Source of the DNA: a virus
Strand: one strand, 5' to 3'
DNA: 12,818 nt
Virus genome (UHGV): UHGV-0342252
A program made the translations under genes and the position numbers. Shown here piece after piece: positions 4,400 to 6,893 of the stretch. Position 1 is the first letter of the stretch, and each line of letters begins with the position of its first letter. The notes beneath the pieces were generated by a model. It saw only the letters and a program-made list of their open reading frames with translations, ran no database searches and was not told the origin of the DNA.

Positions 4400-4538
4400 G
4401 ACCTTTCTCCTTCTGCATCAGCTTCACTTTTTCCAACTCAGCCCGGAATCGACCAGGCTGCTTGAAGCTGGACAGGAAGCGATCACGTAGTATGTGTTTG
4501 TGAATTTTGTCCTGGTAAGGACTGAGTTGTTTTGTCAT
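4392..4538 (-). CDS. small basic ORF (48 aa) between cII and the O-like gene
   Basis: Strong SD (AGGAG) 6 nt before ATG 4538..4536; stop overlaps the O-like ATG by 8 nt (ATGAGTAA). Product [48 protein letters not shown]. The SD+ATG appear to be those used by O in lambda. Confidence 0.4.
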
Positions 4539-4548
4539 AATGACTCCT

Positions 4549-4626
4549 GTGGATTGATCCAGTAATGACCTCAGAATTCCATCTGGATTTGTTCAGAACG
4601 CTCGGTTGCCGCCGGGCGTTTTTTAT
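4549..4626 (+). ncRNA. oop: OOP-like antisense RNA overlapping the 3' end of cII
   Basis: Plus-strand sequence ...GAACGCTCGGTTGCCGCCGGGCGTTTTTTATT matches the lambda oop terminator region as I recall it (GC-rich hairpin plus T-run ending about 4624); a CATAAT -10 candidate lies at 4536..4541. The -35 is not convincing, so the 5' end is approximate. Confidence 0.45.
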
Positions 4627-4864
4627 TGGTGAGAATCGAAGCAACTTGTCGTGCCAATCGAGCCATATCGTCGTCAACGACGCCCCATTCAAGAACAGCA
4701 AGCAGCATTGAGAACTTTGGAATCCAGTCCCTCTTCCACCTGCTGATCTGCGACTTATCAACTCCCACAGCTTCCGCTGTCTTCTCAGTTCCAAGCATTG
4801 CGATTTTGTTAAGCAACGCACTCTCGATTCGTAGAGCCTCGTTGCGTTTGTTTGCACGAACCAT
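4571..4864 (-). CDS. cII: transcriptional activator CII (97 aa)
   Basis: Translation from ATG 4864..4862 ([97 protein letters not shown]) matches lambda CII from memory nearly residue for residue. The ORF-track ORF 4571..4924 extends upstream without support. Confidence 0.95.
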
Positions 4865-4880
4865 ATGTAAGTATTTCCTT
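4842..4880 (+). promoter_or_regulatory. pRE-like promoter with CII box TTGC-N6-TTGC
   Basis: TTGCGTTTGTTTGC at 4842..4855 on the plus strand (the CII recognition repeat), followed by AAGTAT -10 candidate about 4870..4875; reads through cro in antisense toward cI, as in lambda. Confidence 0.7.
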
Positions 4881-4943
4881 AGATAACAATTGATTGAATG
4901 TATGCAAATAAATGCATACACCATAGGTGTGGTTTAATTTGAT

Positions 4944-4976
4944 GCCCTTTTTCAGGGCTGGGATGTGTAAGAGCGG
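4944..4976 (-). promoter_or_regulatory. nutR (boxA + boxB), with the rho-dependent tR1 region expected between it and cII
   Basis: Minus strand reads CGCTCTTACACATCCCAGCCCTGAAAAAGGGC: boxA CGCTCTTA (4975..4968) and boxB hairpin GCCCTGAAAAAGGGC (4958..4944), just downstream of the cro-like stop. Confidence 0.85.
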
Positions 4977-4983
4977 GAATGTC

Positions 4984-5199
4984 TTAAGCGGCTTTGTGTT
5001 CCGGCGGGAACAAGCCATCTAGCGTTGTCTTGCTCCCCAATTTATTCAGCGCCTTTACCAGGCGACGGCACGACTCTAAATCTGGAGTCCGGATACCTGA
5101 CTCGTAGTTAGCTAAGCGGGACTGGTTCCAGCCACACGCGCCTGCTAACGCAGATTGAGTGATGCCAAGCTTTTTCCGTTCGTTGGCAATGTTGTTCAT
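4984..5199 (-). CDS. cro: Cro-like HTH repressor (71 aa), not lambda Cro type
   Basis: First gene downstream of pR, divergent from cI; SD AAGGA before the ATG. HTH (LAGACGWNQSRLANYESGIRTP) is very similar to the cI HTH (LAELCGWASQSRIGNYESGTRSV), as expected for proteins sharing operators. Confidence 0.75.
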   Translation of the reverse strand: MNNIANERKKLGITQSALAGACGWNQSRLANYESGIRTPDLESCRRLVKALNKLGSKTTLDGLFPPEHKAA

Positions 5200-5303
5200 A
5201 GGTTTCCTTAAGAGCTAGTTCACTCAGTCTTTATTAAACACATATTGTGATTGATAGTCAACACAAATCGTGTAAAGCCTTAAACCACGGAATGTGATAT
5301 AAA
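5200..5303. promoter_or_regulatory. oR / pR / pRM control region with three operator-like sites
   Basis: Three sites with a CAC-N5-GTG core (ACACATATTGTGAT 5238..5251; ACACAAATCGTGTA 5261..5274; CCACGGAATGTGAT 5284..5297) spaced about 23 bp apart. pR on the minus strand: -35 TTGACT (5261..5256), 17-bp spacer, -10 TTTAAT (5238..5233). A weak pRM -10 candidate (GATATA near 5296..5301) would give a near-leaderless cI transcript. Confidence 0.7.
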
Positions 5304-5945
5304 ATGCGCATGAACAGAACAGAAACTATCGCCGCGCGTATCAAGCGATTACGGGAAGATAAAGGGCTTTCACAGAAGGCTCTGGCGGAGCTTTGCGGCT
5401 GGGCTTCACAATCTCGGATCGGCAACTATGAATCAGGAACCAGAAGCGTTAGTGTTGATGACGCAGAGGTAATAGCTAAAGCTTTGGGCGTCGCTCCGGC
5501 AGAACTGCTTTTTGGCGACAACTATCAGGGACAATACAAGCCAGGGGAAAAGTTTCCGTTGATTAGCTGGGTTAGCGCAGGTGCATGGAGTGAGGCCGTA
5601 GAGCCGTACAACCCTCAGGCAGTGGATGAGTGGTATGAATCAGATTGTCACGTTGTCGGTGACGCCTTCTGGCTCAGGGTTCAGGGCGACTCAATGACAG
5701 CTCCTACCGGCCTTAGCGTTCCTGAGGGTATGCTGGTTCTGTTCGACACTGGAAAGGAAGCCGTTAATGGAAGCCTGGTAGTTGCGAAGCTGACAGATGC
5801 TAATGAAGCCACGTTCAAGAAGCTAATCATTGATGGCGGTAACAAATACCTGAAAGGGCTTAACCCTGCCTATCCGTTGATCCCAATCGACGGCAACTGC
5901 AAGATAATCGGCGTAGCAGTGCAGATGATGATGAAATTCTCCTGA
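5304..5945 (+). CDS. cI: CI-type prophage repressor with LexA-like S24 autopeptidase domain (213 aa)
   Basis: N-terminal HTH; C-terminal domain with Ala-Gly cleavage site (SWVSAGAW), Ser (QGDSMTAP) and Lys (VVAKL) resembles the P22 C2 / lambda CI family. Alternative start at ATG 5310. Confidence 0.9.
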   Translation: MRMNRTETIAARIKRLREDKGLSQKALAELCGWASQSRIGNYESGTRSVSVDDAEVIAKALGVAPAELLFGDNYQGQYKPGEKFPLISWVSAGAWSEAVEPYNPQAVDEWYESDCHVVGDAFWLRVQGDSMTAPTGLSVPEGMLVLFDTGKEAVNGSLVVAKLTDANEATFKKLIIDGGNKYLKGLNPAYPLIPIDGNCKIIGVAVQMMMKFS

Positions 5946-5968
5946 TATCCCAGCCACTTAAAAACATC

Positions 5969-5993
5969 AAACCCGCTTCGGCGGGTTTTTTGT
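5969..5993 (+). terminator. intrinsic terminator directly after cI
   Basis: ACCCGC-TTCG-GCGGGT hairpin (5971..5986) followed by a T-run. Confidence 0.7.
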
Positions 5994-6032
5994 TGCCCAA
6001 AGAAAATTAAATTACCTTAAAAATCAATGAAA

Positions 6033-6095
6033 ACACGTGTTGTGATAAAAACAATCACATTTCGTGTTGACAGCACGAACACAATTTGTGATTAT
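6033..6095 (+). promoter_or_regulatory. oL / pL: three operator-like sites and the leftward early promoter
   Basis: -35 TTGACA (6067..6072), 17-bp spacer, -10 GATTAT (6090..6095). Three sites with the same CAC-N5-GTG core as oR (6033..6046, 6055..6068, 6079..6092) overlap the promoter elements. Confidence 0.75.
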
Positions 6096-6134
6096 CTAGC
6101 CATCAGCAGGACGCACTGACCACCATGAAGGTGA

Positions 6135-6165
6135 CGCTCTTAAAAATTAAGCCCTGAAGAAGGGC
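6135..6165 (+). promoter_or_regulatory. nutL (boxA + boxB)
   Basis: CGCTCTTAA (6135..6143) and GCCCTGAAGAAGGGC (6151..6165), matching lambda nutL as recalled. Confidence 0.85.
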
Positions 6166-6433
6166 AGCATTCAAAGCAGAAGGCTTTGGGGTGTGGTGAA
6201 GCCAGCTAGTCACTGGCAAGTGCTTACCTACTGTTGAGCGGTGAAGCGCTCCCAACGCTAGCAATAGCGTGGACGAGATGGGGAGCCGCGGGCGATAAGG
6301 CCGCCATAACGCGCACGTTGTCGCATGGAAAAATCGCTGGGGTGCCGGTTATACCCCTCCGAATGAGACTCAACAAGCTGGAGCTAGACTACCAGCCACC
6401 ACACCACCAAAGCTAACTGACAGGAGAATGACC

Positions 6434-6565
6434 ATGAATAACGAAGCGCTTAAAGAAATGATTGCGAAACTCCTTGAGGACGCACGCCGAATTCAAGAAG
6501 TGGAGCCAAACGCAGGGACACAATCACGTATTGATGAAGCGATGAAGTTGCTCAAAGGAGAATAA
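6434..6565 (+). CDS. small ORF (43 aa) immediately upstream of N
   Basis: SD AGGAG (6422..6426) 7 nt before the ATG; stop TAA lies between the SD and ATG of N. Product MNNEALKEMIAKLLEDARRIQEVEPNAGTQSRIDEAMKLLKGE, predicted helical. Below the ORF-track size cutoff. Confidence 0.45.
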   Translation: MNNEALKEMIAKLLEDARRIQEVEPNAGTQSRIDEAMKLLKGE

Positions 6566-6566
6566 A

Positions 6567-6893
6567 ATGGATGCACAAGCACGCCGCCGCGAACGTCGCG
6601 CAGAGAAACAGGCTCAATGGAAAGCAGCAAATCCCCTGTTGGTTGGGGTAAGCGCAAAACCAGTTAACCGCCCTATTCTCTCGCTGAATCACAAACCGAA
6701 ATCACGAGTAGAAAGCGCACTGAATCCGATAGACCTTACGGTGCTGGCTGAATACCACGAACAGATTGAAAGCAACCTGCAACGTATTGAGCGCAAGAAT
6801 CAGCGCACATGGTACAGCAAGCCACGCAGTGAAATGGGTGTGACTTGTGTTGGTCGCCAGAAAATGAAATTAGGCAGCAAGCCACTTATTTGA
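6567..6893 (+). CDS. N: antitermination protein N (108 aa)
   Basis: MDAQARRRERRAEKQAQWKAANPLLVGVSAKPVNRPILSLN... matches lambda N from memory over almost its whole length, including the Arg-rich boxB-binding N-terminus; cognate nutL and nutR boxB sites are present. Confidence 0.95.
   Translation: MDAQARRRERRAEKQAQWKAANPLLVGVSAKPVNRPILSLNHKPKSRVESALNPIDLTVLAEYHEQIESNLQRIERKNQRTWYSKPRSEMGVTCVGRQKMKLGSKPLI

Follow-up and report, generated by a model that had tools for sequence, protein, structure and literature searches.

We analyzed a 12,818-nucleotide stretch of the virus genome UHGV-0342252 (hereafter the window), concentrating on positions 4984 to 6095, where the immunity cassette of the phage is located. 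The window represents the early region of a mosaic lambdoid phage or prophage, and its orientation is inverted relative to the usual lambda map. The cassette consists of cro, a 104-base-pair (bp) intergenic region, the repressor gene cI, a terminator and a promoter region. The two genes are divergent and are separated by a tripartite operator (5237-5298) lying over divergent promoters, while a second set of three dyads (6032-6092) lies over the promoter pL, upstream of nutL and the N gene. The features of the cassette, with the right and left operators designated OR and OL and with predicted operator sites named as in lambda, are as follows.

4984-5199, minus strand: cro, encoding an all-helical protein of 71 amino acids with a Pfam HTH_3 domain (E = 1.3e-12); lytic repressor
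5233-5261, minus strand: promoter pR, with -35 TTGACT (5261-5256), a 17-nucleotide spacer holding OR1, and -10 TTTAAT (5238-5233); read from the sequence
5237-5251: predicted operator OR1, AACACATATTGTGAT, between the -35 and -10 of pR; CAC/GTG invariant and centre variable in 23 relatives
5260-5274: predicted operator OR2, AACACAAATCGTGTA, overlapping the -35 of pR
5284-5298: predicted operator OR3, ACCACGGAATGTGAT, abutting or overlapping the putative -10 of pRM
5298-5303, plus strand: putative -10 of pRM, TATAAA, read from the sequence; TAnAAA in relatives
5304-5945, plus strand: cI, encoding a repressor of 213 amino acids (211 from the ATG at 5310) with HTH_3 (E = 3e-14) and Peptidase_S24 (E = 3e-25) domains
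5969-5995, plus strand: intrinsic terminator of the immunity transcript, with an 8-bp GC-rich stem, a GCTTCGGC-type loop and a T-run (hairpin 5969-5988)
6032-6046: predicted operator OL3, AACACGTGTTGTGAT, retained by the majority of relatives; a few have a degenerate site or none
6054-6068: predicted operator OL2, ATCACATTTCGTGTT, abutting the -35 of pL
6067-6095, plus strand: promoter pL, TTGACA-17-GATTAT (10 of 12 matches, with TG before the -10), found by the promoter scanner; upstream of nutL and N
6078-6092: predicted operator OL1, AACACAATTTGTGAT, between the -35 and -10 of pL

The exact pattern CACNNNNNGTG (CAC-N5-GTG) occurs seven times in the window, where 2.5 copies would be expected by chance. 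Six of these copies form two triplets, one between cro and cI (starting at 5239, 5262 and 5286) and one downstream of cI (6034, 6056 and 6080), and these triplets occupy the positions where lambda has OR and OL. The centre-to-centre spacings are 23 and 24 bp in the right triplet and 22 and 24 bp in the left one. The first-pass annotation of this region, made from the DNA letters alone, had called six CAC-N5-GTG operators and considered their half-sites and spacing to be directly readable. Both statements hold, but the motif could be refined: alignment of the twelve half-sites yields a 15-bp dyad, AWCACR-N3-YGTGWT, which is matched exactly in four of the six sites and with one mismatch in the other two. 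It could be argued that such palindromes are chance or compositional features and not protein-binding sites, because CAC-N5-GTG fixes six bases only and a seventh copy lies in an unrelated hairpin at 4919. However, when 1000 windows were simulated with a first-order Markov model of the window, none contained a triplet within 60 bp, whereas the real window contains two. Moreover, the dyad cores are invariant in diverged relatives. The chance explanation is thus effectively refuted, and we assign it practically no probability. The seventh copy itself (4919-4929) falls within the lambda-identical tR1 hairpin, which lies downstream of nutR, and is for this reason not regarded as an operator. Likewise, a relaxed pattern search allowing two mismatches gave extra matches that were scattered, about as numerous as expected by chance, and in no case adjacent to a promoter.

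The conservation of the operators was assessed in relatives retrieved by a scan of viral contigs for Cro, which gave 80 loci. The OR sequences were taken purely by their position upstream of cro. The resulting alignment comprises 23 distinct sequences whose Cro proteins are 73-94% identical to that of the window. All 23 have three CAC-N5-GTG sites with the same spacing, and all 18 CAC/GTG columns are invariant, while the dyad centres (five bases each) and the stretches that separate the operators vary freely. Downstream of cI, the arrangement OL3 / OL2-TTGAC / OL1-GATTAT recurs in relatives, as judged from unconditioned match lists. The OL alignment was chosen with a pattern that itself contained the OL1 and OL2 cores, so that the invariance of these two sites in it is to some extent built in; evidence free of this bias comes from the OR alignment and the unconditioned match lists. 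The CAC-N5-GTG core is also kept at the same places in the more distant mEpX1/VT1-Sakai, S107, GF-2 and Chris1 (57-67% identity in the cI N-terminal domain, 54-64% in Cro), where the layout of pR and pL is as in the window and the core is the same in OR and, where examined, in OL. CAC-N5-GTG sites also occupy these places in a group of uncultured phages with Cro proteins 55-61% identical to that of the window. Across these distant relatives both cI and Cro retain the segment GW..(Q/P)SR[ILV][GA]NYE with hardly any change, so that recognition helix and dyad core are conserved together. There are nevertheless differences from the window. The left half-site of OR2 is degenerate in mEpX1, S107 and Chris1; the recognition segment of mEpX1, S107 and GF-2 has Pro for Gln in cI and Gly for Asn in Cro; and the OL spacing is 27 and 25 bp in mEpX1, with the OL2-OL3 distance being 27 bp there as compared to 22 bp in the window. 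More distant relatives have an OR with only two full dyads and a half-site.

The two proteins encoded by the cassette are related to each other in their DNA-binding parts. As the first-pass annotation had noted, cI and Cro contain similar helix-turn-helix (HTH) motifs: the N-terminal domain of cI is 47% identical to Cro over 45 residues (E = 9e-12), and the recognition segments are nearly the same (SQSRIGNYESG in cI, NQSRLANYESG in Cro). The HTH_3 domain of Cro sets it apart from Cro proteins of the lambda type. The invariance of the dyad cores and of the recognition segment across the relatives indirectly supports the view that cI and Cro would physically bind the predicted operators and repress pR and pL. 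The C-terminal domain of cI aligns with that of lambda cI (PDB 3bdn, E = 5e-27), and this alignment places Ala92-Gly93 on the cleavage site and Ser130 and Lys172 on the catalytic residues. The protein thus combines an N-terminal HTH with a self-cleaving S24 domain that has the Ala-Gly site and the Ser/Lys dyad. At full length it is 100% identical to the cI proteins of the coliphages mEp213 and Bas106, and it shares 33.6% identity with lambda cI and 47.6% with P22 c2, in both cases mainly through the C-terminal domain. The 71-residue protein is 100% identical to the protein annotated as Cro in the mEp213 record PV340538. The older label 'prophage anti-repressor' in the mEp213 record JQ182733 would suggest that it is an antirepressor and not a Cro-type DNA-binding repressor. 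However, the protein belongs to HTH_3, its recognition segment nearly matches that of cI, its gene is divergent from cI across OR and lies directly upstream of nutR and cII, and the newer mEp213 record designates it Cro, which leaves the antirepressor assignment highly improbable. The best full-length matches to cI after the identical ones, from phages HF4s and Serratia OS31 (51-55%), were considered as guides to the operators and rejected, as only the C-terminal domain is common to them and the window; their N-terminal domains, Cro proteins and operators (of the type AATACC..GGTATT) differ and they are uninformative in this respect. The OS31 and HF4s repressors in fact join the C-terminal domain of the window cI to a lambda-like N-terminal HTH, an instance of domain-level mosaicism within cI genes.

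The promoters were identified partly by a scanner and partly by reading the sequence. The hexamers of pR bracket OR1, and its -10 (ATTAAA on the plus strand) and the TTGA of its -35 are invariant in the 23 distinct relatives; the same layout is found in mEpX1, S107 and GF-2. This promoter was missed by the scanner because its -10 lacks an A at position 2. Just downstream of the pR -10, in the cro leader and at about the transcript start, we observed a conserved GTCACTC block (window 5219-5226, GTTCACTC), which contains a TCAC element resembling a half-site and is kept amid variable DNA in nearly all 23 relatives. For pRM, the scanner returned no match at the putative TATAAA (5298-5303). The cI gene opens with two in-frame ATG codons (MRMNR...) at 5304 and 5310, both kept in most relatives and neither preceded by a Shine-Dalgarno sequence, and the annotated start differs among GenBank records, being the first ATG in mEp213 and the second in Bas106. 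If TATAAA is the -10 of pRM, transcription would begin near 5310, and it is plausible that the second ATG then serves as a leaderless start. In lambda, the cI message that starts at pRM is leaderless. The terminator hairpin begins 23 bp past the cI stop codon, and the 40-nucleotide stretch that contains it (5961-6000) folds at -16.8 kcal/mol. Thus cI is directly followed by a terminator and then by pL, in agreement with the first reading of the DNA.

Comparison of the cassette with known phages made it possible to assign its immunity type. Over the segment 4984-6095, DNA identity is 99.8% to coliphage mEp213 (JQ182733 / NC_019720 / PV340538), 99.8% to Bas106 and 98.9% to ECP1; one of the three mEp213 records annotates cI and Cro. 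Only two substitutions distinguish the window from mEp213 in this segment; they affect positions 5949 and 5952, in the spacer that follows cI, and leave the six dyads unchanged. Cro and the six operators of Bas106 are identical to those of the window as well. The terminator hairpin and pL are likewise as in the window, and no gene separates cI from OL. ECP1 differs from the window by few substitutions, including ones in the operator spacers and beside OL1. According to a published report, mEp213 is an inducible prophage and constitutes an immunity group by itself (PMC3442831). The cassette thus represents a known immunity type, that of mEp213, and is nothing out of the ordinary among lambdoid switches. 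Among 5426 complete E. coli genomes, 14 carry it, and it occurs in phages from different genera, namely CurroJimenez_Bas106 (a P22-like podovirus, Lederbergvirus), ECP1 (Wongtaivirus, Hendrixvirinae) and mEp213 with its lambda-like tail genes. The joints of homology differ among other carriers, lying on the left at 4575, 4668, 4862 or 4942 and on the right at about 6190, 6283 or 6429, and this variation is the usual modular exchange. Heavily mosaic flanks are also what one might expect of an inactive cryptic-prophage remnant that controls nothing, and Bas106, which has the same cassette, plates clear. Against this, both cI and Cro have their full length and match their counterparts in viable phages at 100% identity, the six operators and both promoters are identical as well, and the only differences from mEp213 (5949 and 5952) lie in the spacer past the cI stop. 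We therefore regard a remnant as very improbable.

The first-pass annotation had further stated that repressor, Cro and operators are not those of lambda while the flanking nut sites, N and cII are lambda-like, and had concluded that an immunity swap had taken place. In a blastn comparison, the window is 98% identical to lambda over 4531-4977 (from just past the cro stop codon through nutR, tR1 and cII) and 100% identical over 6101-6195 (from the pL transcript start through nutL), N is 92% identical, and no alignment was obtained across 4978-6100. Homology to lambda thus breaks off at 4977 and begins again at 6101, close to where the pL transcript starts, so that the non-lambda segment measures 1123 bp (4978-6100); its lambda counterpart of 2663 bp includes rexA and rexB. 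With cI only 33.6% identical and no DNA homology in this segment, the cassette is not of the lambda immunity type, and the distinction from lambda made in the first annotation is borne out, as is the lambda-like character of the flanks (92-100% identity). The term 'swap', however, can be retained only as a difference from lambda: the whole window is a mosaic of segments common to many lambdoid and P22-like phages, and for this reason the direction of exchange cannot be inferred. The flanking features are as follows.

4571-4864, minus strand: lambda-type cII; the left flank on this strand also holds a NinB-like gene, a gene for a 626-residue primase/helicase-type protein and an O-like gene
4842-4855, plus strand: lambda-type pRE, cII-binding repeat TTGC-N6-TTGC, in the lambda-identical block
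4944-4975, minus strand: nutR, boxA CGCTCTTA (4975-4968) and boxB (4958-4944), in the lambda-type flank outside the swapped segment
6135-6165, plus strand: nutL, boxA (6135-6142) and boxB (6151-6165), in the lambda-type flank; hairpin found
6567-6893, plus strand: N; the right flank on this strand also holds genes for an Erf-type recombinase and an SSB protein

The likeness to lambda therefore lies in the gene order, in tripartite OR and OL operators with centre spacings of 22-24 bp placed over pR and pL, in the homologous self-cleaving C-terminal domain of cI, and in the flanks. The differences lie in the N-terminal domain of cI, in a helical HTH_3 Cro that resembles cI, and in dyads of 15 bp with a CAC/GTG core, as compared to annotated lambda operators of 17 bp. 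The comparison with known lambdoid immunity types that the first-pass annotation had suggested was carried out, and it pointed to the mEp213 type (99.8% DNA identity) and not to 434, 21, P22, HK97 or phi80. Nor is the cassette of the P22 c2 type: among the 30 matches listed of 110 for the N-terminal domain of cI, we found the mEp213-type, Chris1, S107, mEpX1 and GF-2 repressors and not that of P22. At E <= 0.01, the structure searches yielded lambda cI and further HTH proteins and nothing else. The relatedness of repressor and Cro parallels that in 434 and P22, where the two proteins share a helical HTH domain and recognize one set of symmetric operators. The recognition segment of the window cI differs from that of P22 c2, and the operators of P22 (18 bp) and 434 (14 bp, ACAA-N6-TTGT) presumably also differ from the dyads described here.

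Based on the present data, we consider it very probable that the window contains the complete immunity module of a mosaic lambdoid phage or prophage of the mEp213 type, and that this module is a standard bistable switch of the lambda kind. The data directly show the gene order, the protein domains, the six dyads with their placement at the promoters and their conservation, and the identity to a viable, immunity-typed phage. The way in which such a switch would operate is proposed by analogy with lambda, 434 and P22, which applies to operator binding, affinity order, cooperativity, activation of pRM and the pRM start. Dimers of cI would bind the 15-bp dyads, with those at OR1 and OR2 occluding pR and those at OL1 and OL2 occluding pL. 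cI at OR2, which is centred some 43 bp before the start site assumed for pRM, probably activates a weak and possibly leaderless pRM, whereas OR3 and OL3 probably serve negative autoregulation. Cro, with its near-identical recognition helix, would bind the same sites and silence pRM during lytic growth. RecA-stimulated self-cleavage of cI at Ala92-Gly93, carried out by Ser130 and Lys172, would lead to prophage induction, and the terminator after cI would insulate pL and N, which are transcribed in the same direction, from the immunity transcript. Lysogeny would be established via the flanking lambda-type cII and pRE. Judging from what is known of lambda, we assume that transcription from the pRE repeat at 4842-4855 would run through cro in the antisense direction into the non-lambda cI. 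As this repeat is located in the lambda-like flank, the establishment transcription of a foreign cI would depend on the flanking cII and pRE.

Several points weigh against this interpretation. On E. coli K-12, the plaques of Bas106, whose cassette is identical, are clear; its authors attribute this to a missing attB site and not to a defect of the switch (PMC11990801). Our search of the literature returned no binding, footprinting or transcript-mapping data for the mEp213 immunity type. Both the position of pRM and the choice between 5304 and 5310 as the start of cI are themselves inferred. In addition, the CAC/GTG triplets cannot be the whole determinant of specificity, because mEpX1 is reported to belong to a different immunity group and yet has the same core. 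Finally, not every lambdoid switch follows the lambda pattern, as shown by the repressor of phage 933W, for which non-cooperative binding and an unusual order of affinities have been reported (PMC3317979). The cassette might therefore be a genuine switch that deviates from the lambda scheme in its affinity order, that lacks pairwise cooperativity or a role for OR3/OL3 or looping, or in which pRM is independent of activation, as reported for 933W. Variation among relatives is in line with such a deviation: OL3 is degenerate or missing in some of them, distant ones have the reduced OR described above, and the OL2-OL3 spacing depends on the subfamily. However, the spacings of 23/24 and 22/24 bp and the three OR dyads are strictly kept in the close family, and the C-terminal domain of cI is a close homologue of the cooperativity domains of the lambda and P22 repressors. 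We therefore judge a switch outside the lambda scheme to be rather unlikely, and we favour the standard lambda-style switch. 933W itself was rejected as a phage of the same type; its operators are also 15-bp dyads, but its repressor is only about 35% identical to the window cI and the described consensus positions differ (PMC3317979).

The relationship between mEp213 and mEpX1 deserves separate consideration. That mEpX1 forms an immunity group separate from mEp213 is stated in one sentence of PMC3442831. Nonetheless, the mEpX1 operators have the same CAC-N5-GTG core and nearly the same 15-bp consensus as those of the window (locus L007, 1378-1494; OL in locus L091, about 250-315 nucleotides into the reverse complement of 1389-1900). 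Indeed, OR1 of mEpX1 contains ACACAATTTGTGATT, which corresponds to 14 of the 15 positions of the window OL1 plus the base after it. It is possible that the two groups cross-react more than reported. It is also possible that specificity resides at the start of the recognition helix (Gln or Pro in cI, Asn or Gly in Cro), or in the degenerate half-sites of OR2, the operator spacing or cooperativity. More generally, the mEp213 type, mEpX1/VT1-Sakai, S107, GF-2, Chris1 and many uncultured phages can tentatively be regarded as a superfamily in which one invariant core, CAC-N5-GTG, is paired with a near-invariant (Q/P)SR-x-x-NYE segment, in which at least two members are reportedly heteroimmune, and in which specificity lies outside the conserved contacts; we consider this view doubtful but worth stating. 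If the report of heteroimmunity is right, specificity could sit in flanking or central operator bases, in the degenerate OR2 half-site, in spacing or in cooperativity through the C-terminal domain. If the view is correct, the superfamily would provide a natural series for how new immunity types arise by small steps, and an operator core common to reportedly heteroimmune phages poses a small and directly testable question.

The slot between cI and OL, where lambda has rexA and rexB, was proposed in the first-pass annotation to be empty, and this is the case. Only 86 bp and one terminator separate the cI stop codon from OL3, and no open reading frame is present in this gap, so that rexA and rexB are absent. 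In the wider family, OL follows cI at a distance of about 80-90 bp without any gene, about 490 bp with one small open reading frame for a membrane protein or lipoprotein, or more than 1.1 kilobases. In mEpX1, the slot (locus L091, 1899-3307) carries a PDC-M63A/B candidate defence pair, the first gene of which also matches DUF6932, and in Salmonella phage S107 (locus L092, 2290-3057) it carries BstA. Uncultured relatives (loci L025, L026, L031 and L070) have a small lipoprotein-like or membrane open reading frame in the slot, or inserts of more than 1.1 kilobases. Because the slots of the relatives carry such varied cargo, the absence of rex is one state of a polymorphic defence-gene slot and not a peculiarity of this phage.

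The cassette has little value as a discovery, being deposited in GenBank with cI and Cro annotated for a phage that had already been immunity-typed. What is gained is the identification of the immunity type of the window as mEp213, and an explicit map of operators and promoters with support from conservation, of which we found no equivalent in the GenBank records examined or the papers searched. A further gain is that a slot empty in the window and filled with BstA or PDC-M63 in relatives illustrates how a defence hotspot is filled or left empty.

Outside the cassette, the flanks of the window differ from those of mEp213 in the lambda-type cII (98%), the 626-residue primase/helicase-type gene, the Erf-type recombinase gene and a 126-bp insertion, which mEp213 either lacks or has in another form. 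An Rfam scan of the whole window returned no family at threshold. The insertion (6430-6555) is located directly before the start codon of N and carries an open reading frame of 45 amino acids, MTMNNEALKEMIAKLLEDARRIQEVEPNAGTQSRIDEAMKLLKGE (6428-6565, plus strand), for which no Pfam match was obtained. It is bordered by a duplicated AGGAGAAT, the sequence of the Shine-Dalgarno region of N. The insertion was not found in lambda, mEp213, Bas106 or the IMG/VR carriers of the same cassette, and no phage-collection record covers it; it adjoins N in 5 of 5426 E. coli genomes, where it is annotated as 'hypothetical protein'. The N leader between nutL and N (6196-6429), which gave no Rfam match, is not lambda sequence and is common to mEp213, Bas106, HK633, Sf6 and other phages. 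It nevertheless keeps long-range complementary ends, GGGGTGTGGTG and CACCACACCACC, which we take to be as in the lambda N leader.

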